Positions 31,521 to 61,442 of a DNA stretch of 64,000 bases are shown piece by piece (position 1 is the stretch's first letter; the number at the start of each line of letters is the position of its first letter). Origin of the DNA: a virus; IMG/VR virus record IMGVR_UViG_3300045988_149331, positions 1 through 64,000 of that record. One strand, given 5' to 3'. A model generated the notes under the pieces. That model saw only the letters and a program-made list of their open reading frames with translations. It had not been told where the DNA came from and made no database searches. Both the position numbers and the translations under genes were made by a program.

Positions 31521-33062
31521 TTATTTTACTACCTCGTACCCGGTCTCAGCCTTGAGGCGGGCGATAATGTTGCTGGGGAGTCCGTCCTCGGGGCGAGCCT
31601 CAAACGCCAGCAGCGCGTCGCCATACTCCTTGTCGTATCCCTTGGCGAACGACGCCTGATCCAGGAGTTCCTTCACGGCTGCGGGGTTATCGGTGAACGA
31701 GATGCGGTTGGCGCCGCCCTTCTCGATGTCACCCTCGGGTTTAGCCTTGGCGAAGGCGCGGTCTACTACCACAGCCGACCGCAGCGATTTGGGGCGCGGT
31801 ACATCGTTGCCGTAGCGTTCCAGTTTGTCGGAGAACTCACTGATGGTGTCAGATTGGCCCTTGATGATGTTCTCCAGTTCGGCAATGCGCTTGGAGTCCT
31901 CGGCGCGCTTCTGACGAAGATCGTTCACCAGCACGGCAGTAGCGCGGATGTAGGTCTTGAAGTCGTCGCCAACGCTCTGAATAGCCTTCAGAATGTCGTT
32001 CGACTTGCCCTTCTTCATCTTAGCACCGTTCTTGTCGCACTGCTCGAAGCCTTCGTCGTCCTCCTCGGTCTCCTCTTCGGATTCCTCCTTCTTGCCGGCC
32101 TTGGCATTCTTCATGTTGGCGGCGTTATGACGCGGCTCGTCGTGGGTTTCGTCTTCCTCACCCATCTGGCCGTCGGCGTCATCACCCTTTTTCACCTCTT
32201 CGTCACCTTCAGCCTTGGCGCCTTTCGGGGTAATTCCCAGAGCGTCATAAGCCTTCTCGATGTCCTCGGAAGTGATGGATTTTCGTTTGTTCATAACCGA
32301 TATGTTTTTGATTAAAGTGTATACACCTTGTGCGTTCGGTATTGTAATATTTGGAATGTCCTTGAAGATACATTCCATGACGGAAGATTTCGAGAAGGTT
32401 TGTTTCTTTGGCTGGCCGTCAACCGATTCAGGCATCAGCGCTGCGCCGGACTCAGTGGTCAGAGCCTTCTTCTCGGTTTTTCCACTGCGCTCTTCAGCGT
32501 TATCGTCCTCTTCCTCCGCATCAACGTCGATACCGTCAGCGTCGATCTGACCCTTGATGATATTTACGAACGTATGGGGGTTTTTGGGCATATGGGTTAC
32601 AGCGACGCCTGTGATAACGGCCTTGACGATCTTATTGTAGAGCGGCGAGTTCTTGTCGTTAGAACCACGCTTTACGACCTTACCCTCGATGGAATACCCC
32701 AGACGGCGCGTCTTGCTGTCGTGTTCGAGGGTTTTGGCCAGTTCATATACCTCGCACGCCATAGGCGACGAAGCGTACAGGTCGCTCTCGATCCAAAGAC
32801 CTTCAGGACGCAGTTCCACCTTTGAAGGTTCGCCAATGATAGCCGACGGGGAGTTCTTGGCCTGGTGGTGCCAGTTTACCATGCCTGACTTCTTCAGCGG
32901 GTCAACGTCGAAGCCTGTCGGGTCCAGGTATTCGCCATCAGCATCCTTATCCATAGTGGAGGCAATACCGCCAATACGCATAACAGGTTCGCCTGCTTCG
33001 TCGGTGGCCTTCTCGATGCGTCCGATGGGGCACCAGAAATTGAATTTATCGTCCTTAAACAT
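31521..33062 (-). CDS. prohead protease fused to an acidic scaffold-like region
   Basis: N-terminus 'MRIGGIASTMDKDADGEYLDPTGF...VNWHHQ...IIGEP...LGYSIEGKV' resembles HK97-type prohead proteases. Followed by long Glu/Asp/Lys-rich segments. Confidence 0.55.
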   Translation of the reverse strand: MFKDDKFNFWCPIGRIEKATDEAGEPVMRIGGIASTMDKDADGEYLDPTGFDVDPLKKSGMVNWHHQAKNSPSAIIGEPSKVELRPEGLWIESDLYASSPMACEVYELAKTLEHDSKTRRLGYSIEGKVVKRGSNDKNSPLYNKIVKAVITGVAVTHMPKNPHTFVNIIKGQIDADGIDVDAEEEDDNAEERSGKTEKKALTTESGAALMPESVDGQPKKQTFSKSSVMECIFKDIPNITIPNAQGVYTLIKNISVMNKRKSITSEDIEKAYDALGITPKGAKAEGDEEVKKGDDADGQMGEEDETHDEPRHNAANMKNAKAGKKEESEEETEEDDEGFEQCDKNGAKMKKGKSNDILKAIQSVGDDFKTYIRATAVLVNDLRQKRAEDSKRIAELENIIKGQSDTISEFSDKLERYGNDVPRPKSLRSAVVVDRAFAKAKPEGDIEKGGANRISFTDNPAAVKELLDQASFAKGYDKEYGDALLAFEARPEDGLPSNIIARLKAETGYEVVK

Positions 33063-33261: not shown

Positions 33262-35031
33262 CTATCCGAGTACAAAGATATGCTTGAGATACACCTGTAG
33301 GCCAGGATAACCTTCTAATAATCCAGATGTACATTGGAAATCAAGAACTCCAGCTGCACGACGGCGAACGTTTATTGAGCCATTGGAGCTGGTTGCGCTA
33401 TCAAAGAATCCCGCAATTGTATTCCATGAATTGTGCGCCGAAGGTAAATCGTAATATACGACCACATTTCCAGACGGACTAAATCGCCCATCGCTGTCGG
33501 CCATTTCGAAACAAAGCATTAATGTTACCCCGGGCGATAATTTTGCTAATTCGGTAGATCCATAGGGGATGATTGCACCGTTGCTTTGGTTGAGTTCTAC
33601 ATCCGATCCTGGTAGCTTTATTACCGTTTGTGCTCCTCCGCCGCCTAATTCTGTCCATTGAGCAGTAGTTCCGTTCGTCGAGCCGGAGAAAGTACGGCTA
33701 CCATCAGCTGTTTGGAGCAGATAGGTGTATAAAACAGGCCCCGATGAACTCCTAAAACAATGACCGTATAAAGGCGCAGTAACACCTGAAGGTCCCCCTA
33801 CGATTGTGCCTGCTGTACATATGATCACTCCTTGACCTACAGCCAAATTTCTTATGCTAATATTCGTAGGGTTATTGAAATTAGATACCTGTATTTTTGT
33901 TGCTGGCAGGTCTTTGATAGCAAGACTTACTCCCGTCATATCCACAGCCCCAGTTGTTGCGTTAACGGCGATGCGTTGTATTGCAGCATTAAACGTTGAG
34001 CCAGTACCTACCGAAGGGCAAATAAAGACATATTGATCGGTTTCAGCGCTGTCTTGAGATCGGATAAAGTCTAACTGACCGTAGTCTGCCTGATCGGGGG
34101 TACTGAATATCATACGGAAGATATCGGCAACCTTAACGAATTTCAAATCGCCAGTAGGCACACCCCCGCCTTCGCCGTATGTGAATTCGTATACTGAGGC
34201 TTCGATTCCTGTGGGAGTGCCAAGAATACTCCAGTTCGTAGCGTAAATGTTCGTAGACTGGTAAGTATACAGATACGAACGTTTATAAGTATTGATTGAA
34301 ATAGAGGTACCAACGTATTTAATCGACGAAGCAGAAATTTTTACAGCATAGCCTACCAAAGCCGAGCCAGGTCCGTTAGCGGCGTCATCGGCGCTCGTAA
34401 ATGTGAACATCTCGCCAACGGCAATATCACCCATCACGCAATTGCTGAAAGTGTTACTCTTAAAATCAGTAACCGTCAGATATTTCATGGCGCTGCCGCC
34501 GCTGCCGCCGCCTCCGGCCCACTCCATCATTACACCCATACCACCCCAGTCGTCATAAGCGGTCGAGTGCAATTTCTTGATGATTGCTTCGTCTGTCAGA
34601 GTTTGGAGTGTAAGCCACGCCATGGGGATACTGGACGAAGGAATGACGCGAATATAACTGTCGGTAAGATGGAAAATTTGGAGACCGTTCGTGCCTCCGG
34701 TTTCGGCGTTCGTTCCTTGGAGTATATTGACAATAAACGCCATTTCAGGTTTTCCTGGTGCGCCTGACGCGAGATTCCCTGTCACGATACGCAGACGTCC
34801 GATATTCGCCGCTGCGGTCAGTAGTCTGAGCATGTCCCAAAGTTTTACCTTGCTATCGCCGTATGTAAAATTGTTGGAAATGGGCAAATTGCCAAGCGAC
34901 GGATCTTGCGAAAACGTCAACGCCGCAATCTGGCTTGTGTTGATCTTGTTAGACTCAGAAACCTGAATTTCTTCTTGTCCGCTGGCTGAAGACTTCAGCG
35001 TCAACGCAGACATGTCAATAAAAGTAGGCAT
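33262..35031 (-). CDS. low-GC repeat-domain protein of unknown function (moron-like insertion)
   Basis: 589 aa with Gly linkers (GGGGSGGS, GGGGA) separating beta-rich segments of similar pattern. Has its own promoter motif and hairpin, and lower GC than the flanks. Confidence 0.6.
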   Translation of the reverse strand: MPTFIDMSALTLKSSASGQEEIQVSESNKINTSQIAALTFSQDPSLGNLPISNNFTYGDSKVKLWDMLRLLTAAANIGRLRIVTGNLASGAPGKPEMAFIVNILQGTNAETGGTNGLQIFHLTDSYIRVIPSSSIPMAWLTLQTLTDEAIIKKLHSTAYDDWGGMGVMMEWAGGGGSGGSAMKYLTVTDFKSNTFSNCVMGDIAVGEMFTFTSADDAANGPGSALVGYAVKISASSIKYVGTSISINTYKRSYLYTYQSTNIYATNWSILGTPTGIEASVYEFTYGEGGGVPTGDLKFVKVADIFRMIFSTPDQADYGQLDFIRSQDSAETDQYVFICPSVGTGSTFNAAIQRIAVNATTGAVDMTGVSLAIKDLPATKIQVSNFNNPTNISIRNLAVGQGVIICTAGTIVGGPSGVTAPLYGHCFRSSSGPVLYTYLLQTADGSRTFSGSTNGTTAQWTELGGGGAQTVIKLPGSDVELNQSNGAIIPYGSTELAKLSPGVTLMLCFEMADSDGRFSPSGNVVVYYDLPSAHNSWNTIAGFFDSATSSNGSINVRRRAAGVLDFQCTSGLLEGYPGLQVYLKHIFVLG

Positions 35032-40171: not shown

Positions 40172-40981
40172 CTACACCTCCACCGCGTCAAAGTCAATAT
40201 CAAATTTCTTGTACACAATTCGCAACTCCGGTACGCCGTTAATTGGCTTCTTCTTTTCGTCAATACGAGCGTTCAACGGCCAGCGCTTGAGTATGATGTC
40301 GTGCGCCCGCTGCACGCGCTCCTGGCGTTCGTATACGTCTTGGAGACCGCCGCCCTGGTTGGCTTCCTTGTTCATCTTACTCTGGAGAAGGAACCGCACG
40401 AACCGCGCGTAGACGATTCCCAGGTACATGCATTTCAACGAATAGTCGATGTCGCATTTCAACTCCAACTTTTCGTCAAAGTCCAGTTCCAGCGTCCGTA
40501 GCCCCTTGAAGACGATCAAGTGTGGAATACCGCCGTACTTGAAGCGCGGGCTGACGTCGGTACAACTCCAGTCGAAGGCGCTCTTGCCCATCGTTCCATA
40601 CTCAAAATCGGTTTCCATGACCTCGCGATCAAACTCCTCAAAGAACTCGCTGAGTTCTTCCGGCGTTTTCAACGACAGCCCACACTTGGCTTCACCGTCG
40701 ATCGAGTAGAAGAAGTTGGCGATGTCGTCATCCATCACCACCACCGGGTGGTTCTTGCGGAGGTAGGTGTTCTTGCAGAAATTTACCACGTAGCTGTAGC
40801 CGCGGTTCGAGGCCGGCAGCACAATCAGCCGCTCACGGGCGTGACCCGCTTCGACGTATTTTTCAACGTCCTCCTTTTCGACCACAATATTGTAGTCAAC
40901 GCCGCCCTTTTCCAACAGTTTAGTCGTGACGCACTTGGGGCGGTTCTTGGACACGACGAAGAATTGACAGTTCATACTCAA
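40172..40981 (-). CDS. GT-A-like glycosyltransferase (TET/JBP-associated-GT-like), paralog of 57887..58702
   Basis: 'FFVVSKNRPKCVTT', 'VVVMDDDI', 'KMNKEANQGGGLQDVYE...RWP'. Each aligns with the corresponding segment of 57887..58702. Confidence 0.5.
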   Translation of the reverse strand: MSMNCQFFVVSKNRPKCVTTKLLEKGGVDYNIVVEKEDVEKYVEAGHARERLIVLPASNRGYSYVVNFCKNTYLRKNHPVVVMDDDIANFFYSIDGEAKCGLSLKTPEELSEFFEEFDREVMETDFEYGTMGKSAFDWSCTDVSPRFKYGGIPHLIVFKGLRTLELDFDEKLELKCDIDYSLKCMYLGIVYARFVRFLLQSKMNKEANQGGGLQDVYERQERVQRAHDIILKRWPLNARIDEKKKPINGVPELRIVYKKFDIDFDAVEV

Positions 40982-41658
40982 AAGGGTAATTCACCTTCGG
41001 ACCATATTTCCTCGGGTGGGTTTTGTTCTATGAAACGTTGATATTTGTCTATCGTAGGCTCCAGCGACGGGTAGAACCTAAAGGCAAGTTCCCACTTGAC
41101 GTCAAACATATCGTCGCACGGGACTTTGCGCTTCATCAACACATTTTCGTTGTTGTAGCACTGAATTGTGACTTGCTGACGGCCACGCGAAGTGTACGAA
41201 TAGGGAAAGTCGCGATAGTACTCAGCCAGCGAAACCGTATCTTGAACAACGTCGTGAATGAACTGATTGAAGGGGTGTCCCAGCCCCAACGGCGCCAATA
41301 CGGTATAACCACGGTTGCGTCGTAGGAAACGACGCAAATGGTCGCGAAGCGTTTGTTCGGCGAAATTAAGCGTGTCAGTTCCGTATTTAGTTCTGAGGTA
41401 CGTATAGACGCTGGAGAGATTAAAGTCCTTGAAATGGTCGCCAAAATCGCTACAAATCGCATCTTCGAACCCAGTGTCGAAGACATCCATCGTAATACCC
41501 ATGAATTCATAGAGCGATCGCTGTTCTACAACGCGGTTTGGGTCGCTATCTACAGTAAGCACCCGAACGTCATATTCGGGTGCTACTAAAACGTGACAAG
41601 CGCTCATCAGGAGATCACCCGCGTGAGGCTCGACACACAGGTACTTTATTTTTCCCAT
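40978..41658 (-). CDS. PIG-L/LmbE-like deacetylase
   Basis: 226 aa. 'KYLCVEPHAGDLLMS' (HxxD strand, compare AHPDDE), 'VRVLTVDSD', 'GLGHPFNQFIHD'. Confidence 0.45.
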   Translation of the reverse strand: MGKIKYLCVEPHAGDLLMSACHVLVAPEYDVRVLTVDSDPNRVVEQRSLYEFMGITMDVFDTGFEDAICSDFGDHFKDFNLSSVYTYLRTKYGTDTLNFAEQTLRDHLRRFLRRNRGYTVLAPLGLGHPFNQFIHDVVQDTVSLAEYYRDFPYSYTSRGRQQVTIQCYNNENVLMKRKVPCDDMFDVKWELAFRFYPSLEPTIDKYQRFIEQNPPEEIWSEGELPF

Positions 41659-42605
41659 GGCCGCTTGTAGATTTTCTCAGCGCAGGGGCCGTCTTTCGAC
41701 ACGTCCTCAGCCATCTTCCGGATTTCCGGCGTGATAGGCGGCAGCGTTTGCTTACCCATTTTGTCAGGCAGGAAGCCGACGCGGACGCTTACGTGCGTAC
41801 ACCCCTGACACGGGCGGAAGCGGCGGTCGTTGTTGTACAGCATGACACGGGCGGCGTGAAAGCGCGGGTGGTTCCACAGGTCTTCGATGGGCATGTCGTG
41901 GATGTTGGCGATTGGGTACTCACCGCGGAAGTCATCACAGCACAGACACACCTGGCCATTCCACCTCACGTCCAGTTCGCGGAACGGGAAGGTGCACCGC
42001 TTGTTGTTGAACGAATCGTCAAGCGGGAAGGCCGCGCCGCAGTGGTTGGCCAGGCGACGTGTCATCTTGTTGGTGTCGTCGTGGGCGATAGGCGGCAGCA
42101 AGCAGATACGACGGCCCTGCTTGGGGTAGTAGTACGGAACGCCGGGTTCCAGCGTCACGACGTTGTACTTATCAACATCGATCTTCTCGACGAAATTCCA
42201 GTCGCCGTTGGCCGTGTAGCAGTCCACCAGAATATCGTTCATACCTGCTCCGAACAGCGCGTCGAGGTACGCCTCGGTGTCTTCAGCGTGGTTCATGGCG
42301 TAACCGTTACTGTACATATGAAACACAGCCTTCGGCAAGTGCTTGCGGAACGTGGCGACGATGTCGATGAAGGCAGGATTCAGCGTCGGTTCGCCGTGCA
42401 TAGCGAACACGAACTTACAGTTCCAACCCACCCGCGCTACCTCCGAAGCAATACGCTCGGCCGTTTCGACGGTCATGAAATTCCAGGGCTTGGTCCCCTT
42501 TTCACGCATACCGTGTAAACCGCAGAACGAACAACCGAGGTTACAGCCCTCGGTAGGTTCAATCTGCATGGTAAACGGGGGGTCTTGTACGATTTTGTTT
42601 TTCAT
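41646..42605 (-). CDS. radical SAM enzyme with a Cys-rich SPASM/twitch-like C-terminal domain
   Basis: CxxxCxxC 'EGCNLGCSFCG'. C-terminal 'RCTFPFRELDVRWNGQVCLCCDD...RPCQGCTH'. Confidence 0.8.
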   Translation of the reverse strand: MKNKIVQDPPFTMQIEPTEGCNLGCSFCGLHGMREKGTKPWNFMTVETAERIASEVARVGWNCKFVFAMHGEPTLNPAFIDIVATFRKHLPKAVFHMYSNGYAMNHAEDTEAYLDALFGAGMNDILVDCYTANGDWNFVEKIDVDKYNVVTLEPGVPYYYPKQGRRICLLPPIAHDDTNKMTRRLANHCGAAFPLDDSFNNKRCTFPFRELDVRWNGQVCLCCDDFRGEYPIANIHDMPIEDLWNHPRFHAARVMLYNNDRRFRPCQGCTHVSVRVGFLPDKMGKQTLPPITPEIRKMAEDVSKDGPCAEKIYKRPWEK

Positions 42606-43537
42606 TATTTTGTAACTTTAATGTTGAGTTTCACGTTCTTTAACTTTGGGTCTTTGAACTGACGCTTGACGGGCTTGGTGAAAGCGCGGGTTGCGGGGTC
42701 CCAATCGAAATTATCAGGCTTGTAATTAACCTGACACCGGCAGTAGGGGTGCGTCGGGTTAATCGTAGGGAGCCACTCTGCCGCCTTACGACCGATGTTG
42801 TTACCGTTAGCGATAAGGTCCGCCAAACGGAACAGTTTCGGTTTCGAGGTAGGGTCCTCGGGGTCTTCTAAGTACAACTCCCGGCACTTAGCGCACGCGC
42901 CTGGATAGACGTCGAAATACACTTTGGCGTCAGGCCCGTGTTGCTTGAAAATACTTTCAGCACGGCCCACGTTGTAGGCTTCGTGCAGGAGATAGTACGC
43001 AATACGCAGCCAATCGCGTCCCCAGTCTTGGGTAAGGTTTCCCAGTTCGCTGGCTACATAGCGCGCCCCCTTACGGAGTTGAACGGCTTGAATGGCCTTA
43101 TCTTTGATTTGCTGGCGTATAGCGGCCTGCTGACGGAAATTCGACTTGAGGATGGTGTTGCGTGTCCCGGTGACGATACGGTTGCCAAGCGATGTGATGT
43201 CGGTGTAGGCGCGGTTCTTGAGGTAATTGAGGGCGTTCTCTTCCTGTTCAGTGAGCGGTACAAAGTTTCCTGATTTCAAGAACTGAAGAAACTGTTTGTA
43301 GTTCATCTTCTTGGCGCGGGTATCGCCGATAGCCTCAGCCAAGATTCCAAACAGAAAGGCGTGTTCGATTATACCCTTAGAGTTCTTGTACTTATCGACG
43401 TTGACGCCTGACGCCACCAAGATGTCGATCTCCGACTGGGTCAGAAAATCCAATCCGACGTGCTTAGCAATAAACAGGTACTGCCAGCGCCGGAGAATAC
43501 CGACCATGTCGTCTATTTGGCGGTTATTGAAAATCAT
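42605..43537 (-). CDS. MuF-like (SPP1 gp7 family) minor head protein
   Basis: C-terminal 'INPTHPYCRCQV' matches the PxxHPNCRC signature of the Phage_Mu_F family. Confidence 0.7.
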   Translation of the reverse strand: MIFNNRQIDDMVGILRRWQYLFIAKHVGLDFLTQSEIDILVASGVNVDKYKNSKGIIEHAFLFGILAEAIGDTRAKKMNYKQFLQFLKSGNFVPLTEQEENALNYLKNRAYTDITSLGNRIVTGTRNTILKSNFRQQAAIRQQIKDKAIQAVQLRKGARYVASELGNLTQDWGRDWLRIAYYLLHEAYNVGRAESIFKQHGPDAKVYFDVYPGACAKCRELYLEDPEDPTSKPKLFRLADLIANGNNIGRKAAEWLPTINPTHPYCRCQVNYKPDNFDWDPATRAFTKPVKRQFKDPKLKNVKLNIKVTK

Positions 43538-44175
43538 CAGTCTTCAGTGCTCCAAGAGCCGTCGTTTTTTAATTCCCTGGCTTTTGGTCCATCAGATACA
43601 GTCTTCTTGATACCATATTCCCCAGGGCGTTCGTTTTCTTCACTCCGTACCTTGTTCGCAGTTTCCGCCGCTTTTTGATACGAACCACTCTTTACCTTCC
43701 GTAACAAACGAATGTCTTCTATCTTTATGGAATTTGGATATTTGCCCCCTATTTTGTTAACAAGTCCGTCTATTTTCACCTCAAAGCTATCGCCATCGCG
43801 GCTAACTATCTTCCCAACTGAATATGAATGATAACCGGAGCCGTTATTAACATGAACAATTACGACATCGCCATGGCTTAAATCGGAAGGTTCAACCTCG
43901 TGTCCTGAATTAAAATCCTCAACGGTGTACTGGTACAGTTTCTTGTTAGGTAATTTAATTGGCTTGAACTTAGGTTCTTTGTAAGGCATCCCAACGCGCC
44001 CTAATTTCCGATTTTCAGACGTGTCGGCGTATCGCCCGGTCTTCGAACGGGCTTTCTCCAACGCATCGCCGTCGGTTAGGTTTCCTTCAAAAGCACCTAT
44101 GGCTTTACACAAGTGGTCGTGGCGATATTGATTGGCTTCATGAAATGCCCTCGTCACTTCATCTACTACTCCCAT
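43537..44175 (-). CDS. candidate packaged protein with an 'EKAR..G.Y.D...NR.L.RVG..Y' motif and an SH3-like C-terminal part
   Basis: 'LEKARSKTGRYADTSENRKLGRVGMPY'. C-terminal 'GDVVIVHVNNGSGYHSYSVGKIVSRDGDSFEVKIDG'. Confidence 0.5.
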   Translation of the reverse strand: MGVVDEVTRAFHEANQYRHDHLCKAIGAFEGNLTDGDALEKARSKTGRYADTSENRKLGRVGMPYKEPKFKPIKLPNKKLYQYTVEDFNSGHEVEPSDLSHGDVVIVHVNNGSGYHSYSVGKIVSRDGDSFEVKIDGLVNKIGGKYPNSIKIEDIRLLRKVKSGSYQKAAETANKVRSEENERPGEYGIKKTVSDGPKARELKNDGSWSTED

Positions 44176-44678
44176 AATCTTACTCGTGATTCATGGCCGT
44201 GTTTAACGGCAATTCTACCGTTGTTAAGGTCGATTTCAACGCTCTTATCGGTAAGTGCAACAACTTTTCCAGGCTTATAACAAAACCCATTTTCAGCGTT
44301 CCCCAACTTGACGATAACAGCTCTGTACTTGGTGAGTTCGGAAAAGTCTTTGATCTTGATGGCTTCTTCGTCAAACATCTTTTTCCAAAACCACTCGATA
44401 TCAGGCCAGAGGCGAACCTCTTCGTTAACCCCTAACGACGCTGTAATCGGCGCACCATTGGGGAACAAATTCACCTCACACTTACCATCACTGACGCGTG
44501 ATAGCGTACCGATGTTATACCTCACCTTCCCCTTATCATCCTTCACGCGAACGATGACTCGTACAGGGTAAGGCGGTGTTACCTTCAACGCGCTGTTAGC
44601 AGCGATTGTTGTGCCGATATGCCAAATCTTCTCAGCCTTCGCTGCTGACACGGCCCAAATTATTTTTCTTTGGTCCAT
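44166..44678 (-). CDS. hypothetical protein with two SH3/KOW-like beta-barrel repeats
   Basis: 'VRVIVRVKDDKGKVRYNIGTLSRVSDGKCEVNLF...EEVRLW' and 'VIVKLGNAENGFCYKPGKVVALTDKSVEIDLN...SRVRLW'. Confidence 0.45.
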   Translation of the reverse strand: MDQRKIIWAVSAAKAEKIWHIGTTIAANSALKVTPPYPVRVIVRVKDDKGKVRYNIGTLSRVSDGKCEVNLFPNGAPITASLGVNEEVRLWPDIEWFWKKMFDEEAIKIKDFSELTKYRAVIVKLGNAENGFCYKPGKVVALTDKSVEIDLNNGRIAVKHGHESRVRLWE

Positions 44679-44850
44679 CTTCCTTTAATTCTTTTACCGC
44701 CGCAGCCGTAGCGTCGGCGATGTATTTTAGTACATCGCCTAACGCAGCGGCGTTGTTGGCGTTCCATTCGCGGATAAACCGATCTTCGTACTGAGTAACG
44801 GTGGGGAATGGCGACGGCAAAAAGTGGGTATGTTTGGCGTTGTAAGGCAT
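44632..44850 (-). CDS. hypothetical small protein
   Basis: 72-aa ORF with a 1-nt overlap with the upstream gene. Confidence 0.4.
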   Translation of the reverse strand: MPYNAKHTHFLPSPFPTVTQYEDRFIREWNANNAAALGDVLKYIADATAAAVKELKEDGPKKNNLGRVSSEG

Positions 44851-46604
44851 TACTCTTGTTTGCTATCTTCCGGCAACCATTCCATTAAGACACGATTTCC
44901 TTCAATCTTATGGACCTTATAATTTTGGTCTCGGCCAATTAAAAATTCCCCCTCCTCTCCTCCGTAAACCCCTACTACTGGAGCAACCGGGCAACCCGCG
45001 GGAGCGATAATATCAAAATACATAGTCCCCTCGTCGTTGCTAATTTCAGGATAACATGTAGTGCTCATGAACGACTTATCGCTGAACACCTCCCCCTCCT
45101 TGAGATTTTTAACGAAATTATCTGCATCGTTTTCAAACGTAAGTTTCCTGTATAAAACGATATTTTGTCCCACTTTATTTTGAGAAATAAACGTATCAAT
45201 TCCGTTTATGAATTTATCCATTTTATCAGACGATACATCGACTTTGTTGCCGTAAAGGTATTTTCTCATTACAGCAAAGTCAAGATCATCATCTTCGTCA
45301 AAATCGTCATCATGGTCTGCGGAATATAAAACAATAGCTTTTACTGCATCCGAATCGCTTTCGTCCATGAAATCCTCATAAGCGTCAACAATCTTATCAA
45401 AGAATTCAGTTGCATCGTCGCTGTTTAATCGTATGAATTTTTCGCCGTTTATGTCCAACCCACTTTTCCGTAAAGCCCATTTGTACGCTCTATCGGCCTT
45501 TTTGAGAACTTTTTCATTCGCCTTGTCAGAGGGTAATCGCTCAATGTTTTTCGCAGTACTGTCGCCTGATAATGAAATATTAAAACGTTCATTATCTGCT
45601 TCAAATTTCTTTTGTTCTTCTGCTTTTTCCCTTTTAACATCCTCGCTTTTTACCCAAAAAGCGATAGCGTCGTCTTTTGTGTCTTCAGGCACGATATTAT
45701 TTCTTTTCAAGACATCAATCGCCTTTTTAGATAATTCTTCGGGGGTTAATTTATACTTTGAATACTGTTCGTCGGTCTTTCGTAATTTACTCAAAAAGAT
45801 GCCAGCTATCGTCTTTGGTGTATCGCTACCTCGTACTTGATCCAGCAAATCTTTTTCGAATTTCTCATCAACGGCATCTTCGTCTTTATTGTCGTCATCC
45901 TTTTCACTACCCTCCCTGGCGTCAGGATCGCCGAACTTGGACGCGGCTCCCTCGACGTCAGCGATCTCCTTCACCGTCGTGGTCTCGAAATTGTCAACAT
46001 CGGCGTAGGGGTATTTGTCCACGCGGTAGCCTTCGCTGGTCTTGGTGACTACCAGATCGAAGCCGTCTTCGTCGCCGCCGACCTGCTTGATGAACGCGTG
46101 AGAAGCGTCTTCGACTCCAGCGTACTGCTCCAGGTCCTGGTCGTCCATCTGACGGAAGCCCATGGACTCAAACGAGGCCGTCGCCTTGGCGTCACCGTCA
46201 GCCAGGCCGTTACGCAACGAGGCGTCGCCCTTCTTGTTCTTGGCGCGAACGTTCACGCCGCGGCGTTCGAGTTCTGCGGTGGCCACCTTGCGCATTTCAG
46301 CGTCAGCCGACGGATCGTTAGCCACTTTCACCAACGCCTCCTCCGAAGCCGAGCGGGCATGATTCTGGAGGCTGACGTTGCCTCCGGGAACGCCACCTTC
46401 ACCCCCCTCAGCCGCGGGGTCTTTCTCCTTGGCTGCGTGACCGTACTCCTGACCCACACGTTGCAAGCGGCGGTTTTGAGCGTTGTCGGTGTATACACCG
46501 TGACGCGCTTTTTCGATTTCTACCTCTTCAGTTTCGGGGATGTTGACGAACCCCTTGAGGATTTGCTGTCGTTTTGCCTCACCGTAGTTGATAATCTCTT
46601 TCAT
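44850..46604 (-). CDS. candidate packaged effector with a C-terminal R-S-E ADP-ribosyltransferase domain (Alt/C3-like)
   Basis: 'NIVLYRKLT' (Arg), 'KSFMSTTCY' (S-T-T), 'GGEEGEFLIG' (ExE). The N-terminus carries 'EKARHGVYTDNAQNRRLQRVGQEY'. Confidence 0.65.
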   Translation of the reverse strand: MKEIINYGEAKRQQILKGFVNIPETEEVEIEKARHGVYTDNAQNRRLQRVGQEYGHAAKEKDPAAEGGEGGVPGGNVSLQNHARSASEEALVKVANDPSADAEMRKVATAELERRGVNVRAKNKKGDASLRNGLADGDAKATASFESMGFRQMDDQDLEQYAGVEDASHAFIKQVGGDEDGFDLVVTKTSEGYRVDKYPYADVDNFETTTVKEIADVEGAASKFGDPDAREGSEKDDDNKDEDAVDEKFEKDLLDQVRGSDTPKTIAGIFLSKLRKTDEQYSKYKLTPEELSKKAIDVLKRNNIVPEDTKDDAIAFWVKSEDVKREKAEEQKKFEADNERFNISLSGDSTAKNIERLPSDKANEKVLKKADRAYKWALRKSGLDINGEKFIRLNSDDATEFFDKIVDAYEDFMDESDSDAVKAIVLYSADHDDDFDEDDDLDFAVMRKYLYGNKVDVSSDKMDKFINGIDTFISQNKVGQNIVLYRKLTFENDADNFVKNLKEGEVFSDKSFMSTTCYPEISNDEGTMYFDIIAPAGCPVAPVVGVYGGEEGEFLIGRDQNYKVHKIEGNRVLMEWLPEDSKQE

Positions 46605-46679
46605 CGTATTGTTGTTTTATATGTTTCTTTTCCTACTACAAAAGGTAATGAAAATTCTCCAAACCGCCAATAGTTTTTG

Positions 46680-47237: not shown

Positions 47238-47734
47238 GGACGTTTGCCGTTTTTGATCATATCCTCGTAGGCCACAATTGACGCTTCAAGATCACTGATG
47301 CGACGCTTGTATTCCTCGGCGGCGCGATTGGCTTCGCACTCATGTGTACGGAACTCCTCCATCAGGCGGTTATACTTATCACGATCGGCCTGGCGTTGAG
47401 CCTCGTATTCGTCGCGAATCTTGTTGAGTTCGTTACGAAAGTTGGTCATCATTTCGTTAGATAACCGCCGTTCGTTCTGTACCTCTTGGTAGAGGTTGTC
47501 GTAGCGTTCCTTCCACCACGACTCCTTCTTGTCCAACTCAGCCGCCAATACGTCATATCGCCCTTTCCAAAACTCTTCACCCTTGAGGTCGGCATCAGCC
47601 TGACTGGCGCGAACTTCCTGCTCGTATTTCTTACGATCGAGCATACGTGCTACAACGGCATAACCGATACTACCCACTCCAAATAGAAGTGAGATCACGG
47701 GGAAAATTGTAGTCATGAAAAGTCCGTCAGCCAT
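47234..47734 (-). CDS. N-terminally membrane-anchored coiled-coil protein (i-spanin-like)
   Basis: TM 'TTIFPVISLLFGVGSIGYAVVA' followed by ~130 aa of charged heptad-like sequence. Confidence 0.45.
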   Translation of the reverse strand: MADGLFMTTIFPVISLLFGVGSIGYAVVARMLDRKKYEQEVRASQADADLKGEEFWKGRYDVLAAELDKKESWWKERYDNLYQEVQNERRLSNEMMTNFRNELNKIRDEYEAQRQADRDKYNRLMEEFRTHECEANRAAEEYKRRISDLEASIVAYEDMIKNGKRP

Positions 47735-49942: not shown

Positions 49943-50200
49943 TTAGCGTGAATATAGGTAGGCGGTACGGTCGTCCCAAACGAAATTGAAACTCATATCC
50001 CCTTGAGGATATTCCGTGATGGTAATGCCGTTGGCGGTTGTTTCACGTTCGATACGCCAGCCCGGCTCTCCCTGGCCTGTGCCGATAGGGGCATATCCGC
50101 GATACACGGTCCCCTCAGTGGAAGCGTCGATGATAGGCTTCGGCATGGCCTCCGAAAGCAACTGCACGATGGGTGCAGTATTCTTCTCGTTACTCGTCAT
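49943..50200 (-). CDS. hypothetical protein
   Basis: 85-aa ORF directly after the portal gene. Confidence 0.45.
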   Translation of the reverse strand: MTSNEKNTAPIVQLLSEAMPKPIIDASTEGTVYRGYAPIGTGQGEPGWRIERETTANGITITEYPQGDMSFNFVWDDRTAYLYSR

Positions 50201-51956
50201 GATCTATTGCTTTTTGTAAGTATTCGTCAAATGCGGCCACGAGCGGGTTTGCCTCACGGGCCTTCATAGTCTCTTCGTCGTCGCCTTGGGCGTAAAGGTC
50301 AAACGGGTTGCCGCCCTGGGCGTCGGCGTCTTCTTCGCCTTCACCACCAGCCACAGGCTCATCAGCCGGGCCGCCTGCTGCCTCCATACCCATACCAGCG
50401 GCCTCTTCGAATGGGTTTCCACCGCCCATTCCCATACCGCCCATCGCCTGCTGCTGTTGCTGCTTGGCGCTGAGGGCTTGTTGAATAACGGAGTTTTCGA
50501 TAGTATCACCACCCTTTTCTTCGCCGATGGCGGGGAGGTCCCACTTTTCGCGAATTTCATCGACGGTCTGGAAGGCTTGAAGGCGTTTGATGTCCATATC
50601 CAACTCCTCGGAAATAGTCATTCCGTTGAGGCCCATGAACACGAACTCAAAGTCAGGGTTAATCTGGTCAACGATGAACTTGTTAATCTTACGCTGGATG
50701 AACTTCAACAGCGGATACAGACCCTTGTCTTTCGACTGCTCCATACGTTGTTTTTGGCCATCGCCAAACGTCAGGCCGCTGTTGTTAGAACGTGATATGT
50801 CCCAACCGATTTCCGTCGGGTCGATACAGTACACAGCGCAAGCGATCTTAATCAGGTATTCCATCCAAGACGTGTACTCCATATCACGGTTGTTCTTCTG
50901 GAGGTCTACCCAGTCAATATCACCTTCGACGACAGGCGTCTTCCACGACTGCATAACGCCTGAAATCATCGCCTGCCACTGCTGTTTGAACTGCTGAAGC
51001 GAAGCCTCGTTGACGTTGCCCTTGATACGCAACAGACCCTTCGGGGCTGACCCCTGTGAGAAGAAACGGCGGTTGTACTCATCACCCCAAAGCATCGACG
51101 TGACGACGTTGATCAACTCTTCCAACTCGGAGTTCCCGTAGCCGTTAGCGTAGATAGACGTTGACGGGTTGCGGATTCCAAAGCACAACTCCCATGGATA
51201 GAACTGTGCCACCTTGGCTGTTTGGTACACCTGGACGTAGGCCGGGTAGTAACCGTCGATTTTTTGCCCCCAGTTTTGGCGGTCATCCATCATTACGCCG
51301 CGGAAATACGGGTTGTCGTATTCACCATCAAAGTACGAATCTGCCAACCGGAACGTAGCAGCGTCTACAGCCTGGAAACGTACCAATTTACCGCGGCGAT
51401 TGCGGATACATTCAAACGTCAGCTGGTCGAACGTCAACGAGTCGTCAACGATCTTACGTATGAACTCGTCAAATTCGTCACCATCCCACGCAGCAGTATC
51501 GCCACAGTTTAGGATGAAGTCCGTGATGGACGAAGCGATCTTGCAGTCTTGGGAGTCCATTTTCTGCTCCATACCGTGACGCGGCTTGCGTCGAATAACG
51601 AAGCCCGTCGAATAGCGGTCGGCCTGCGGTTCAGCAAAGTCGGCCACCTGATTCTTACGGGTCTTGATGATGGAGTTGATAATGGGGGTGCGGCTCATCC
51701 GGCGCAGCGTCTCGTACGAGAGTGAGAACGGCTTATCCTTGTAACCCAAAAACGAGTTGAACTCCAACGGGTCGATGAGATATGCCTTGGGGGCCACGTT
51801 GGCGGGCTTGCTTTGCTGGTTAAATATTTCGGCCGCTTTGAGTATGTCGGACGGGTTATCACCACGCAGCGCCTTCTCCACCAACAGCGATTTGCGGATG
51901 GTCAAGGCTTGCATGGCGCGTTCTACCGATTCCAATCTTTCTTTTACACCGGACAT
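50190..51956 (-). CDS. portal protein
   Basis: 588 aa, first gene of the head module. Acidic Gly/Met/Gln-rich C-terminal tail. A MuF-like gene lies in the same module. No family signature verified. Confidence 0.6.
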   Translation of the reverse strand: MSGVKERLESVERAMQALTIRKSLLVEKALRGDNPSDILKAAEIFNQQSKPANVAPKAYLIDPLEFNSFLGYKDKPFSLSYETLRRMSRTPIINSIIKTRKNQVADFAEPQADRYSTGFVIRRKPRHGMEQKMDSQDCKIASSITDFILNCGDTAAWDGDEFDEFIRKIVDDSLTFDQLTFECIRNRRGKLVRFQAVDAATFRLADSYFDGEYDNPYFRGVMMDDRQNWGQKIDGYYPAYVQVYQTAKVAQFYPWELCFGIRNPSTSIYANGYGNSELEELINVVTSMLWGDEYNRRFFSQGSAPKGLLRIKGNVNEASLQQFKQQWQAMISGVMQSWKTPVVEGDIDWVDLQKNNRDMEYTSWMEYLIKIACAVYCIDPTEIGWDISRSNNSGLTFGDGQKQRMEQSKDKGLYPLLKFIQRKINKFIVDQINPDFEFVFMGLNGMTISEELDMDIKRLQAFQTVDEIREKWDLPAIGEEKGGDTIENSVIQQALSAKQQQQQAMGGMGMGGGNPFEEAAGMGMEAAGGPADEPVAGGEGEEDADAQGGNPFDLYAQGDDEETMKAREANPLVAAFDEYLQKAIDHDE

Positions 51957-51993: not shown

Positions 51994-52317
51994 TCAACCC
52001 AACATTTTCAAAATGTCGTTGCAGGCCGTTTTCCTGATTATCAACGCTTGATGAACGATATCTCCCCACACCGCCAACTGATGACCGCGCCATGAGTAGT
52101 AGTCGGTTTGGTCATCGTACGAACCTTGCCACTCGCCTTCGCTGCGTATAGTAGCCACCAAACGGCGAAATGCTCGCTGTTCGTCGGTAGTGAGGGGTGA
52201 TATAAAAGTGCCGACGACTACTAATCGTGCGGCACTCGTTGTTAGATCATCGGCTAACGTTTGAAAGTTAATGCCCATGAACTCACCTGTCTCTAATGGG
52301 GTATGAAAAGTTATCAT
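51994..52317 (-). CDS. hypothetical protein
   Basis: 107-aa ORF with a 4-nt overlap with the upstream gene. Confidence 0.5.
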   Translation of the reverse strand: MITFHTPLETGEFMGINFQTLADDLTTSAARLVVVGTFISPLTTDEQRAFRRLVATIRSEGEWQGSYDDQTDYYSWRGHQLAVWGDIVHQALIIRKTACNDILKMLG

Positions 52318-53324
52318 TCGCCAACCAATTTTACAGTTCGTGGTTCAAAAGTAGAGCGTTGCTTACCTTCACCGATGCGCATCTTCCAGTATTTTTGATA
52401 TTCACACAACCACATCTCGATCTGGTGAAGGGTTATATTGCCGTGAGGCGTTGTGTAATATCCTGCTTCGAGTTTGTGCCAGTGTAGGTACGGAAAATCT
52501 CCAAATGTCGCCAACGCCACCTGCGCTTCATCACGCAGACGATAGATACCGTCAATTTGACGTTTCAACGACGGGAATATTAACCGCAACCCAATCGACG
52601 CCCCAGGCCCCACGTTAGTGTAGTCATCCTGAGTGAAACGCATGAAACGCCGATATGTATATCGCGGTATATAGGTGAAATCTTGATAGAATTCGTGAGC
52701 GATGAATGCAGCCGATGACGGAAGCCCCTGAAGGAACTTGATGATCTGTTCAGGAGTTTGGGCCGTAAATACCATCTTGATGAGTTCACCCAAGCGACGG
52801 TGTAACGTAGGCACTACCAGATGGGTGTAACAGTAATCACGCGGTTTACCCGGCGTGGCCATGGAATTGATGAGATATGCCGTGGTGTAGGGGTTGTTCC
52901 CCGAAGCGCGGTACGACGTTATCATCTCTGCAAAAGCGTCTTCGTCGTAGCTGTCGTAATCTGGAATACCAGCGCCCCAGCCATACTTATCGCGAGCGTA
53001 TTCAAAAGTACTGGGGTTGTTGAAATACCGGAACACCATCATCTTCCACACCAAGCTGGCTAACGACAATGAATCATCCAACAGAATATTTCGAATTTGC
53101 CACTGGGAATTTCGATCCAGTTCGCGGTACACGTTAGTGAACTTGTAGTCGCGCAAAATAGGGTCTTCAGTCCAGGGGCGTGGTTGGTGATCGATGAAAC
53201 GTCGTTTCCAGATCATTTGCCGCTCAAACATCGTGCGAAAGAACTCCGTGCGGTGTTCGTCGCTCACGTCAAGCGTATCAGATGGGAGTTTGTCACTCCA
53301 AGAATAGTGATCAAAGTTTGCCAT
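52314..53324 (-). CDS. aGPT-Pplase-like protein (putative thymidine hypermodification transferase family)
   Basis: 'FERQMIWKRRFIDHQPRPWTEDPILRDYKFTNVYRELDRNSQW' matches my recollection of the family's N-terminal signature (R..G.P.PWT.DPIL..Y+FTNV.R.LDR.(S/T)). Predicted all-helical, 336 aa. Confidence 0.5.
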   Translation of the reverse strand: MANFDHYSWSDKLPSDTLDVSDEHRTEFFRTMFERQMIWKRRFIDHQPRPWTEDPILRDYKFTNVYRELDRNSQWQIRNILLDDSLSLASLVWKMMVFRYFNNPSTFEYARDKYGWGAGIPDYDSYDEDAFAEMITSYRASGNNPYTTAYLINSMATPGKPRDYCYTHLVVPTLHRRLGELIKMVFTAQTPEQIIKFLQGLPSSAAFIAHEFYQDFTYIPRYTYRRFMRFTQDDYTNVGPGASIGLRLIFPSLKRQIDGIYRLRDEAQVALATFGDFPYLHWHKLEAGYYTTPHGNITLHQIEMWLCEYQKYWKMRIGEGKQRSTFEPRTVKLVGE

Positions 53325-58721: not shown

Positions 58722-61442
58722 CTAACCTAACATGTCGAACTTAAATCCCGTCGTCATACGCGAAGCCGCCAAGTCAGCCAACCAGAACGAAGACGAAATA
58801 TCGTCATGACTGCCGACGCTCTCCAGCCCCTTTTCGGTGAAGGCTACTGAACCGAGGTCTTGGAAGATGAGGTCCTTGACCTGCTGTGAATAGACGTTCC
58901 CCACCGGGATGTGAATCTTACCGCGTTCGAACAGCGTCGATAGGTGGGGCCATCCGGTCTTGAGGTCATATTTGTCGATTCCAGTTGTATGGCCGATGAC
59001 GGGCATCCCTTCGGTATCAGCTGTTTCGACGAATATCTGCTGAAAGGTGTTATTCTCCATCACGATCAGGTCAGGCCGGAAACGGGAATTTATACGCCGC
59101 AAGACATTCATCTGCTCGAAGAACTTGGCGCCTTTTTCGCGGTAAAGGTGAAGCAGCCAACGCTCATCAGTCAGTTCGTCAATACCCCACACGCTGAATA
59201 CCGCGTAGTCAGCGCCGACGTTGGCTGAAATAGCGAAGTCACAGCCAACGACTACCTTGGAGAACTTGATGGGGAACTCTTCGCGTGAATCCACCAGCGT
59301 GTATTTCTCCATCCTCAGCAGCGACCGCGTGAGAATTTCCATCGGGAAAATAGACGATTCGTTGGTGATCGGGCGGCAAAGGTTCTCGCGCGAGAAGATG
59401 ATCGACCCCTGGGTCTCCTTTTTATCCATCAGATCCTTAAACGACCAACGCTGCGGCCACAATATTCGCCCGTTGGGGAAGATGGCCGGATATTCGATAA
59501 CGAACCAACCGTTCTTGGTCTTCAGGTCGCCATAAAGGTCTTCAGCGTGAAACGGTGTACCGACGACGATAATTTGGCCGCCAGGTACGAGCATGTTCAT
59601 AATTACGGAGTGGAAATAGTCGGTGGATTTGTTCCGTTGGAGAGCCGAATAGATGACGTTATCCTTCAGACCATCATCGACGATAATCCAGTACGGGTGA
59701 GCGCCACGCACCGAAGAACCAAAACCCTTGCCTGTCAAACGCGCGCCGTTACGGCACACTATATTGGTAGCTGACCAGTTGGCTGACGTTGACTGAGGAT
59801 AGAGTCGTTCCTTCAAGATTTCGTTTTCCTCGATGGTACCCTTCAGAATCTCCAAAAGGTCAACGCTCTGTTGTAACGAGAACGAAAACAGAAATCCGCG
59901 GTTCGACGACGCCACGGTGGGACGCTTCGAATAACGAACGCTTGACGGCTTTTTGTAGCGGTACAACTGCCACGCTGCGTAGGCGTTGGAGAAGTAGAAC
60001 GAGTTGTGAGCAACCGTTCCGTCGCCCAGTACGAAGCGATGGTCGCCATCGGTGGTGATCGAGACATATTCCCCTTCGCCAACAGGCGTGATCTTCAACG
60101 ACGATACCACCGTAGGGTGAACACCATCGATAGTTCCCCAGTCTTTGTGTGACGTCTTGGTAGACCAGTCGGTTTGGACCTTTTTACGGGCTATTTTCAC
60201 GGGGATTCGATCCAGTTCGCCAGAAATAGTTACACACCACGACGAATAGTCACGCCCTAACGCCTTACAATACCGCGTTCCACCGCCCATTCGCGTACAG
60301 AAGCCAAGACTGTCGGCCAGGTTCTTCACGTCACACACCAGCTGGTAGTTCGTATTACCGAAGTGATAGCCACCCTGCCAGTAGTTACCGTCGGAATCGA
60401 TCAACCCAGCCAACACCTGGAGGCGGACTGCTTCGCTGTTGACGAGATACTGCTCTGGAATGTGTTTATTGTAAAGCAGGTTGTAGCCCTTCAACACCCT
60501 TTCAATCGGGTTACGCTTACCGCGACCCCGAACGCCGACTCCAAGCGTCACGACAAGTCCCTTTTGGCTGTAGCGAAGCCCCGTGCGCTCGGCGTAGCCG
60601 CGGAGATATTCACGCACTTCAGGGTCGGCGGTGGTGATCTTCTGGTTGTTGGAGTTGCCGTCACCTAACCAGTACCCCAAGAAATACGGCTCCAACGTCA
60701 CAGGCCGTGCTGGATATTGTACCGCTACCTTGAAACCACGATAACGTTCCTTGATCCAGTTGGGGGTCTTACTTAACAGGGTCGGCATATCAATGTCCAC
60801 TATCCGCTTCGACGCTGTATCGATGGAGCCGTTGCGGTCCTTTTCGATCAGCGTACAAATGTGACGCGAATTGACCGTGTAACTATCACCGCGCGACTGG
60901 TCGATACGGTACATCGTGGAATCGTGACCGCGGTGCGTAGCCACCACACGGCGTGGTGTAGAGTTGATACCCATCAACAGATCGCCAACCACAACGTCTT
61001 CTACCCTCTTGATGGTTCCGTCGTACATCCTCACTGGTGTTCCAACAGCCTCACATTTCCCGTGGTCACGAGCAGCGTTGATACACAGTTTCTTGTGCTG
61101 GTGAACTAAATCGCCCCACTCCAGGTGGTGCCACGATAGTTGAAAGTCGGGGATAACGGAAGTGATGAAATACGTCAAATTGGCACACCGCAGCGTGTCT
61201 TCCACCACGGCAGAAATATTCTCTTCATAGCGCGGCTTAAAGTCGATCGACGCGTCACCTGTGTACATCACCTTGTAGGTGTCTTCCATCAACGCCGCGA
61301 ATATATCGTCAACATCGTGTGAGTCGCCACTCATCAACTCATTCAGTCCGCGCTCATCCAGCCCCTCGATTATTTCATCAACGAGGTCCAGGCACGCCAA
61401 ACGGTGCGTCACCGACGGCGATATAATAGTGTCTAAACCCAT
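58722..61442 (-). CDS. terL: terminase large subunit interrupted by an intein
   Basis: Exteins join to give Walker A 'AARDHGK|S'. Walker B 'YWIIVDDG'. C-terminal nuclease-like part 'VVVGCDFAIS'. 906 aa minus the 351-aa intein leaves 555 aa. Confidence 0.85.
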   Translation of the reverse strand: MGLDTIISPSVTHRLACLDLVDEIIEGLDERGLNELMSGDSHDVDDIFAALMEDTYKVMYTGDASIDFKPRYEENISAVVEDTLRCANLTYFITSVIPDFQLSWHHLEWGDLVHQHKKLCINAARDHGKCEAVGTPVRMYDGTIKRVEDVVVGDLLMGINSTPRRVVATHRGHDSTMYRIDQSRGDSYTVNSRHICTLIEKDRNGSIDTASKRIVDIDMPTLLSKTPNWIKERYRGFKVAVQYPARPVTLEPYFLGYWLGDGNSNNQKITTADPEVREYLRGYAERTGLRYSQKGLVVTLGVGVRGRGKRNPIERVLKGYNLLYNKHIPEQYLVNSEAVRLQVLAGLIDSDGNYWQGGYHFGNTNYQLVCDVKNLADSLGFCTRMGGGTRYCKALGRDYSSWCVTISGELDRIPVKIARKKVQTDWSTKTSHKDWGTIDGVHPTVVSSLKITPVGEGEYVSITTDGDHRFVLGDGTVAHNSFYFSNAYAAWQLYRYKKPSSVRYSKRPTVASSNRGFLFSFSLQQSVDLLEILKGTIEENEILKERLYPQSTSANWSATNIVCRNGARLTGKGFGSSVRGAHPYWIIVDDGLKDNVIYSALQRNKSTDYFHSVIMNMLVPGGQIIVVGTPFHAEDLYGDLKTKNGWFVIEYPAIFPNGRILWPQRWSFKDLMDKKETQGSIIFSRENLCRPITNESSIFPMEILTRSLLRMEKYTLVDSREEFPIKFSKVVVGCDFAISANVGADYAVFSVWGIDELTDERWLLHLYREKGAKFFEQMNVLRRINSRFRPDLIVMENNTFQQIFVETADTEGMPVIGHTTGIDKYDLKTGWPHLSTLFERGKIHIPVGNVYSQQVKDLIFQDLGSVAFTEKGLESVGSHDDISSSFWLADLAASRMTTGFKFDMLG
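60003..61055 (-). mobile_element. intein with a LAGLIDADG homing endonuclease domain (aa 130-480 of TerL)
   Basis: Starts with Cys (TGT at 61055..61053, after Lys). Block B 'NSRH'. Two dodecapeptides, 'LGYWLGDGN' and 'LAGLIDSDGN'. Ends 'VAHN' (AAC at 60005..60003) followed by Ser +1. Confidence 0.9.

Follow-up and report, generated by a model that had tools for sequence, protein, structure and literature searches.

An ADP-ribosyltransferase tail exchanged in frame behind a conserved N-terminal module in a gut phage

Results

Gene A and its position in the head region

The window analyzed here is a 64,000-nucleotide (nt) stretch of viral DNA, positions 1 to 64,000 of IMG/VR record IMGVR_UViG_3300045988_149331, and its subject is one open reading frame (ORF), here called gene A (44850..46604, minus strand). 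The ORF call gives a chimeric protein of 584 amino acids (aa) in which an N-terminal module, a linker, a helical domain and an ADP-ribosyltransferase (ART) follow one another. The genome is that of a ~98-kb gut myovirus-like phage; its relatives are contigs of 97-100 kb from metagenomes. Among 5.8 billion proteins searched, 11 were full-length homologues of gene A, with 88-99% identity. Related loci are given L numbers and related proteins P numbers below.

All long ORFs of the window lie on the minus strand, as do all features described here unless another strand is given. Annotation with PHROGs places the large terminase at 58722..61442, the portal at 50190..51956, the head maturation (prohead) protease at 31521..33062 and the major head (capsid) protein at 29996..31483. 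Read along the minus strand, the terminase and portal genes come first, followed by gene A, a possibly MuF-like gene and then the genes for the prohead protease and the major capsid protein. Gene A is separated by 75 nt from the gene before it and overlaps the one after it, stop codon on start codon (TAATG); it shares its strand with the late head genes. Judged from gene order, this arrangement reads as the layout of a late operon within a head-morphogenesis cluster. In every examined relative of the lineage, the slot has the portal gene on one side and the protease and capsid genes on the other. A scan for promoters and terminators gave signals not above chance, and positions 42000-49000 had no blastn match among cultured phages. 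The capsid protein is 48% identical to those of the Bacteroides thetaiotaomicron phages DAC16-23 and SJC03, and ~40% identical to those of SP-10-like Bacillus phages.

Composition and homology break at the same linker

Guanine plus cytosine (G+C) content, computed in 300-nt windows, averages 0.512 over the whole stretch with a standard deviation of 0.042. Within gene A it is 0.59-0.63 over 45900-46500 and 0.31-0.40 over 45000-45900. The single maximum-likelihood change point falls at 45910, with G+C of 0.59 above it and 0.39 below; its log-likelihood ratio is 36.1, compared with a mean of 2.3 and a maximum of 6.9 in 200 shuffles. Codons 1-230 have a G+C of 0.593 and a third-position G+C (GC3) of 0.71, which is in the top 9% of same-size coding windows of the genome and is therefore normal for a core gene; the genome mean GC3 is 0.61 and that of the capsid gene 0.81. 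Codons 231-584 have a GC3 of 0.38, in the lowest 0.5% of same-size coding windows, and the G+C of the tail (0.391) lies under the minimum of any such window (0.451). The "GC-rich leader" of the preliminary description is therefore simply native, and the tail is the outlier. That description had put the switch near 45900 from hand counts of G+C on five 60-nt lines (37, 39, 24, 18 and 23), all of which are exact on recount, and the sliding-window G+C and codon-usage computation that it had proposed places the break where it expected one. An ORF of 278 aa antisense to the GC-rich N-terminal half of gene A (45837..46673, plus strand) was considered as a gene and rejected; it most likely exists only because the sense frame is GC-rich.

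The DNA of the resident N-terminal module (aa 1-230, 45914..46604) is shared with all 29 related loci at 77-97% identity, and similarity runs uninterrupted from upstream to 45914 (range 45889-45919; aa 230/231). In 25 of the 29 it is lost after this point and comes back at 44852-44865; these 25 loci have no similarity to the ART tail, which is present in four (L005, L028, L029 and L060). The swapped-in, AT-rich tail (aa 231-579, 44866..45913) measures 1048 bp, with a G+C of 0.39 and a GC3 of 0.38. Its left breakpoint comes just after the codons for FGDPDA[K/R], in an acidic junction linker (aa 230-240, 45885..45917) that is predicted to be disordered: the AlphaFold2 (AF2) model gives it a predicted local distance difference test (pLDDT) score of <50, between a confident alpha/beta domain and a confident helical domain. 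Homology (45914) and G+C (45910) thus break within four nucleotides of each other, inside this linker. The right breakpoint is formed by the last four codons, KQE and the stop (44850..44865), which are common to some of the alleles with repeat tails described below. An in-frame junction at ~45.9 kb, joining a resident N-terminal module to a compositionally foreign ART tail, had been predicted from the window's sequence, together with a comparison against relatives; the comparison finds one N-terminus bearing alternative C-termini. We have very little doubt that gene A is a compositional chimera formed by in-frame modular recombination at about 45.9 kb.

More than 100 proteins match aa 1-230 only (85-97% identity) and then diverge wholly from the ART tail, which itself is found in about 11 protein clusters. 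The alternative tails consist of acidic helical repeats of ~100 aa in tandem, to which some proteins add a conserved C-terminal domain; total protein lengths are 422-694 aa. Of 144 alleles, 97 combine repeats with the C-terminal domain, 33 carry the repeats alone and 13 the ART. At 50% identity the slot resolves in the close group into five clusters, four of them repeat variants, so that only ART or acidic repeat tails occur. The G+C of the alternative tails is 0.49-0.58 (0.55 in L001, with a GC3 of 0.67). The repeat tail is native in composition, and it is the ART tail that stands out. Far from being a core function, the ART is an allele that is both optional and mobile.

Synonymous divergence (dS) changes across the junction. 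Between the window and L028, the N-terminal module is 80.5% identical in DNA (dS 1.46) and the tail 99.8-100% (dS 0); between the window and L029, the module is 97% identical (dS 0.13) and the tail 83-88% (dS 0.5-0.67). Such discordance shows recent recombination. The two contrasts therefore indicate that the ART tail moves among diverged backbones and that two ART subtypes exist. No direct or inverted repeats were found flanking the swapped segment, only low complexity of acidic codons, so nothing points to site-specific recombination. The simplest mechanism of exchange would be homologous recombination through conserved flanks, the left one ending in the FGDPDA[K/R] linker and the right one consisting of the last four codons with the overlapping start of the next gene.

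One ART allele (L060:4001-5756 and L061:229-1984) has a 1-nt insertion in an A-run near window position 45615, where GCAGAAAAAC becomes GCAGAAAAAAC. This allele, seen in at least four contigs from different samples, specifies a 334-aa N-terminal part and a separate, stand-alone ART ORF of 228 aa. The insertion may represent a true frameshift, a site of slippage or an error in the homopolymer.

The tail is an R-S-E mono-ADP-ribosyltransferase

The tail begins with a helical domain (aa 241-337, 45594..45884; pLDDT 75-92) that belongs to no known family and has close homologues only within this phage group. Behind it lies the catalytic core of the ART (aa 450-569, 44898..45257), which matches the Pfam family PF03496 (ADPrib_exo_Tox) at 37.4 bits with a cut-off of 23.4 (E 2e-9). 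The motifs read earlier as an R-S-E signature are all in place, LYRK at aa 484, FMSTT at 512 and EEGEF at 550. They supply the catalytic arginine R486 (45147-45149), S514 of the S-T-T motif (45063-45065) and the ExE glutamates E551 and E553 of E-G-E (44952-44954 and 44946-44948). When gene A is aligned with 19 distant homologues (20 sequences in all), R486, S514 and E553 never vary and E551 hardly does. The other ART alleles retain R486, S514 and E551-x-E553.

Searching the PDB with the whole protein by phmmer gave nothing significant; only a profile of the ART domain worked. The profile of the ART alignment matches VIP2, CDTa, Iota Ia, C2-I, C3, Certhrax, Vis and Tre1, with E values for VIP2, CDTa, Iota and C3 of 4e-36 to 1e-10. 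The ART core of the AF2 model (pLDDT 70-89) matches C3, VIP2, Certhrax, CDTa and Tre1 structures in the PDB with a Foldseek probability of 1.0, and in the Foldseek viral library it matches Alt-like models labelled "RNA polymerase-ADP-ribosyltransferase" as well as ARTs that are fused to portal or minor capsid (MuF) proteins. By family match, catalytic residues and predicted fold, the tail is an R-S-E mono-ADP-ribosyltransferase of the C2/C3/VIP2/Alt clade. The ratio of nonsynonymous to synonymous substitution (dN/dS) between the ART subtypes is 0.11-0.18, in the helical part and the ART part alike, which shows, by codon comparison, that the tail is under purifying selection with its catalytic triad intact. 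In this ART clade an ExE ADP-ribosylating turn-turn (ARTT) loop predicts an arginine acceptor. By analogy, gene A probably encodes an active arginine-specific ART.

A widespread N-terminal domain precedes the exchangeable tails

The N-terminal module contains two domains. The second, an alpha/beta domain (aa 137-229, 45918..46196; pLDDT 83-92), is lineage-specific and found in close relatives, P0123 and P0243 only. The first, which we call the N-domain (aa ~20-130, 46215..46547), is widely conserved and consists of a motif and a helical hairpin. Its core motif, EKARHGVYTDNAQNRRLQRVGQEYGH (aa 30-57, 46434..46517; pLDDT 78-91), has Y38, D40, N44, R49, V50, G51 and Y54 invariant. The consensus of the domain is IEKARxGVYxDNAxNRRLxRVGQxYG, a variable spacer and then HAxxASxEALKxAxxDxxAxxxVRxAAxxELxxR; the motif in short form is YxDxxxNRxLxRVGxxYG. 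Only two copies occur in the window, one in gene A and one, RYADTSENRKLGRVGMPY, in a downstream gene that we call gene B.

What is new at this locus is this N-terminal domain, for which the family libraries, structures and papers searched offered no match. The N-terminal module is recognized by no model of Pfam, NCBIfam or PHROGs, a Foldseek comparison of its fold with the PDB gave no match (best E 0.45), and a literature search with the motif string found no relevant mention. Among cultured phages, tblastn with the N-domain of gene A gave no hit and tblastn with a typical family member only weak hits. One of the tblastn matches, to a Klebsiella phage, was spurious and was rejected. The match to Bacteroides phage DAC19 is real, comprising the motif and a Zeta toxin: gene DAC19_77 (L062:5950-6795) joins the motif YKNNFLNRKLGRVGQKYG to a kinase of the Zeta-toxin type (Pfam E 1e-32). 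Scanning prokaryotic genomes for the family returned one locus only, on a Prevotella contig from a metagenome-assembled genome, so it is not a prophage family.

Among 1.84 billion representative proteins, the N-domain search gave 256 hits, and the counts that follow come from the best 147 of them. The domain is present in 131 of the 147 representative clusters and begins no more than 60 aa from the N-terminus in 107 of these 131. It is combined with an ART in 22 clusters and comes first in all 22. Its other partners are NUDIX with DUF6496, ART-PolyVal, Kinase-PolyVal, Ser/Thr kinases and a Zeta-toxin kinase; in proteins of 800-1400 aa, it stands between NUDIX/DUF6496 and ART, ART-PolyVal or Kinase-PolyVal. 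Most tails behind the N-domain match no known family, and the proteins are encoded mostly in head gene clusters. A widespread N-terminal domain for which Pfam, NCBIfam and PHROGs have no model thus precedes several classes of host-modifying enzyme.

Three further architectures were also seen. P0125 (1231 aa) and P0140 (2156 aa) have four to five tandem ART domains related to the window ART, without the N-domain. In P0147, P0156 and P0244, copies of YxDNxxNRxLGRVG with Ser-rich linkers stand ahead of a Ser/Thr kinase domain. An AT-rich phage fragment (L065:1114-3065 and L066:805-2756; G+C 0.29-0.31) has a gene for N-domain and ART preceded by an overlapping ADP-ribosylglycohydrolase gene (PF03747). 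The two genes are possibly a pair of ART and antidote; no gene of the PF03747 type is present in the window.

A virion-carried effector or a docked enzyme

Taking the evidence as a whole, we lean toward gene A being a modular protein of the head operon with a swapped-in ART tail, made late and carried in the virion as an Alt-like effector. The incoming module consists of the helical domain and a C3/VIP2/Alt-type R-S-ExE ART with AT-rich codon usage. The ART would be produced late alongside the head proteins, carried in the virion by means of the N-terminal module and delivered with the DNA, to ADP-ribosylate an arginine of a host protein early in the next infection, like T4 Alt. An immunity gene would not be needed, because the target cell would be the cell being killed. 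That the N-terminal module might target the capsid was suggested at the outset. The idea is plausible and would fit the head-module position and the late-operon layout; for packaging through this module in the manner of Alt, which we propose by analogy, we would put the chances at slightly short of even.

Several observations weigh against this account. The AF2 model as a whole is of only moderate confidence (pLDDT 67). A frameshifted allele that detaches the ART from the N-terminal module is circulating in at least four contigs. In DAC19 the motif-Zeta gene is one of a series of small hypothetical genes at a distance of ~90 kb from the capsid gene, and the three kinase proteins P0147, P0156 and P0244, with 7-13 tandem copies of the motif, do not look phage-like; both fit a target-binding peptide as well as they fit a packaging tag. 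A homologue search with the tail alone gave no donor, and its close relatives, all within this phage group, are attached to this same N-terminus. The ~15% difference between the two ART subtypes implies that the ART module is not a recent arrival in the group, and the low G+C of the tail might be maintained, not only inherited.

Some of these observations would be accommodated if the N-terminal domain were a targeting or regulatory peptide that docks the enzyme on a conserved partner (nucleic acid, RNA polymerase and the ribosome are candidates) and the enzyme acted in the producing cell. The fusion to a Zeta-toxin kinase outside the capsid gene region of DAC19 and the 7-13 motif copies with Ser-rich linkers ahead of Ser/Thr kinases are in line with docking, as is the stand-alone ART ORF retained by the split allele. 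The motif segment is, moreover, the sole basic stretch (pI 9.7) in an acidic protein. However, every lineage relative examined has the gene in the interval from the portal to the protease and capsid genes, co-oriented with the late genes, and a host-modifying enzyme made late has little time to act unless it is carried to the next cell. We consider docking in the producing cell unlikely.

If the protein is instead a virion-carried effector, the N-domain itself may have a general role. It is possible, and we put this forward tentatively, that the ~100-aa domain (EKARxGxYxDxxxNRxLxRVGxxYG and the helical hairpin) is an undescribed carrier that loads cargo into heads or delivers it with the DNA. 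Whatever follows the N-domain would then be an injected host-modifying effector, the modules so far being ART, ART-PolyVal, NUDIX, Ser/Thr kinase, Zeta-toxin kinase and many unassigned tails. The slots of gene A and gene B would together make an immunity-free polymorphic effector system, with in-frame exchange through conserved linkers.

Origin of the ART tail

P0123 has an N-terminal module only about 48-59% identical to that of gene A, yet it carries a repeat-type tail with the C-terminal domain. Because of this distant repeat tail, the composition of the ART tail and its minority status, the ART tail would be the derived state and the repeat tail the older one. As for a source, AT-rich phages of the same lineage (G+C 0.29-0.41) have homologous portal, protease and capsid proteins and a homologue of p310, the possibly MuF-like protein, with N-domain genes at the matching position of the head module. 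One of them, L064 (G+C 0.35), encodes portal, p310, a NUDIX-N-domain-ART protein, protease and major capsid protein, with the ART protein just upstream of the protease. These AT-rich relatives are a plausible donor pool.

The opposite polarity would make the ART tail ancestral in the slot, replaced by the acidic repeat tail in most phages, with its AT-richness arising from selection on the tail and not from a foreign origin. An N-domain-ART architecture is indeed widespread (22 of the 131 N-domain clusters), and the ART subtypes are ~15% diverged within the group. However, the repeat tail of native composition also occurs on the distant module of P0123, and the ART is a minority allele and the compositional outlier, in the lowest 0.5% for GC3. 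We find an ancestral ART improbable.

Downstream genes vary in separate patches

The gene following gene A is a 72-aa ORF (44632..44850). A block at 44667-44865 is conserved whatever the tail type, and this 72-aa ORF block keeps 92-96% identity even where the backbones are only 77-80% identical. In distant AT-rich relatives the ORF is the N-terminal part of proteins of 374 and 425 aa (L056:7723-8847 and L034:1245-2522); it may be a third gene with conserved head and variable tail, here split into two ORFs. The 170-aa ORF that follows (44166..44678) covers a second variable patch (44168-44666) and is replaced by ORFs of 77 and 90 aa in L001. Gene B (43537..44175, 212 aa) has a conserved N-terminal part (44005-44167) and a variable tail (43545-44004; G+C 0.43) with breakpoints at 43982/44005 and 43537/43545, and its tails fall into three classes among the relatives.

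Beyond gene B lies p310 (42605..43537), a 310-aa head-module protein with an HPYCRC motif that is conserved in all relatives, the distant ones included (1e-59 to 1e-137), and is possibly MuF-like; one homologue has a faint Phage_Mu_F match (E 0.48). Beyond that faint match, PHROGs, NCBIfam and Pfam assign no family to the 72-aa ORF, the 170-aa ORF, gene B or p310. In L010, L012, L021, L022 and L023, p310 contains an insert of ~1.1 kb at window position 42721-42740, and its product in L029 (L029:13077-15077) has 666 aa and matches Intein_splicing and DUF559. The domain matches suggest that the insert may be an intein with a homing endonuclease.

It had been proposed that a single foreign cassette of ~2.4 kb (43.5-45.9 kb) entered the genome, bringing the toxin with partner or immunity genes in the manner of polymorphic toxins. 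The mild AT-richness of both downstream patches (G+C 0.47 at 44168-44666 and 0.43 at 43545-44004) is in keeping with one cassette, and the window and L028 share a near-identical tract (44168-45913, 99-100%) that takes in the ART tail and the 72-aa and 170-aa ORFs; larger tracts can therefore travel together. The AT-rich run described downstream is real in these two patches but not continuous, as conserved blocks of normal G+C interrupt it (0.49 at 44667-44865 and 0.50 at 44005-44167). In L001, which has other alleles and no ART tail, the equivalent region is equally AT-rich (0.43-0.47). The 72-aa and 170-aa ORFs stand beside non-ART alleles at 92-98% identity (L003, L004, L007, L008, L020, L025 and L026), for which reason the 170-aa ORF was rejected as an immunity gene, and L005 combines the ART tail with a different gene-B tail. 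The replaced piece of gene A is 44866..45913 only, with homology to non-ART alleles resuming at 44865. There are, then, three separate variable patches, split by conserved blocks and assorting independently; the single cassette is contradicted, and we give it very little chance.

A reading without any transfer, in which the step would simply mirror the amino acids of a disordered leader rich in Ala and Gly and of a tail rich in Lys, Asn and Asp, we dismiss almost entirely: amino-acid content accounts for part of the step (with genome codon usage, a G+C of 0.555 would be expected in the N-terminal module and of 0.481 in the tail), but synonymous sites switch too (GC3 0.71 to 0.38), the observed 0.391 is far under the tail's expected value, and the step coincides with the homology break and the discordant dS. 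The G+C step is more than an effect of amino-acid composition.

Two other features of the head module were noted. Genes of thymidine hypermodification type lie inside it at 52314..53324, 41646..42605 and 40172..40981; they are a 5-hydroxymethyldeoxyuridine (5-hmdU) kinase-like gene (HMUDK_hel), a radical SAM/SPASM gene and a TAGT gene, and SP-10 is among the nearest cultured capsid relatives. A 589-aa gene at 33262..35031 has a GC3 of 0.45 (mean 0.61), the lowest of any whole gene after gene B; it has no PHROG match and may be another acquired or variable gene.

Discussion

T4 Alt is a head-packaged ADP-ribosyltransferase of RNA polymerase, and MuF polymorphic toxins occur in temperate phages. 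Head-associated ARTs, modular phage effectors and mosaic recombination are already established themes. Alt/VIP2 ARTs near myovirus head genes have been predicted to be packaged in the head (PMC9503650, PMC5512222), and head packaging has also been proposed for phage polyvalent and MuF-fused effectors (PMC5512222, PMC9503650). Gene A is an unusually clean case within these themes, in which lytic gut phages are seen to exchange effector domains in frame at domain boundaries. Were the N-domain a tag for packaging or delivery, it would give a search handle for new phage effectors in metagenomes and a candidate tool for loading cargo into capsids.

The closest functional parallel is T4 Alt. The ART of gene A belongs to the same R-S-ExE C3/VIP2/Alt clade, the gene stands among the late head genes of a myovirus-like phage with a prohead protease, and the protein has a long non-catalytic N-terminal part. 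Gene A has no detectable sequence relation to Alt outside the ART fold, its N-terminal module is a different and unnamed domain, and the ART is an optional allele of the group, not a fixed gene.

With MuF fusions and polyvalent proteins (Iyer et al. 2017, PMC5512222), gene A shares a conserved head-associated N-terminal part and exchangeable C-terminal effectors, and the N-domain itself is present in true polyvalent proteins with NUDIX, DUF6496, ART, ART-PolyVal or Kinase-PolyVal domains. However, gene A has no MuF match (PF04233) at E up to 0.1, the possibly MuF-like p310 is a separate gene, and gene A has a single recognizable enzymatic domain where polyvalent proteins have two or more.

The analogy with bacterial polymorphic toxins (contact-dependent inhibition (CDI) systems and Rhs), drawn in the preliminary description, holds in part. 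A toxin-type C-terminal domain of foreign composition is replaced in frame while the N-terminal region ahead of it is conserved, the breakpoint falls at a short linker that is itself conserved, and alternative C-termini exist. At the deep family level, the N-domain precedes ART, ART-PolyVal, kinase and Zeta-toxin modules. What does not carry over is the panel of toxins in the close group, which has two kinds of tail only, the ART and a non-enzymatic repeat. The ART tail has no co-varying immunity gene, there are no orphan cassettes, and any delivery would be by the virion, not by a secretion system.

Among the exotoxin-type ARTs of PF03496, finally, gene A shares with C3, VIP2, Iota Ia, CDTa and Tre1 the predicted fold, the catalytic R and the S-T-S/T and ExE motifs. 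Its identity to them is about 15-25%, and it differs in having neither a binary-toxin adaptor domain nor a secretion signal and in being encoded within a phage head module.

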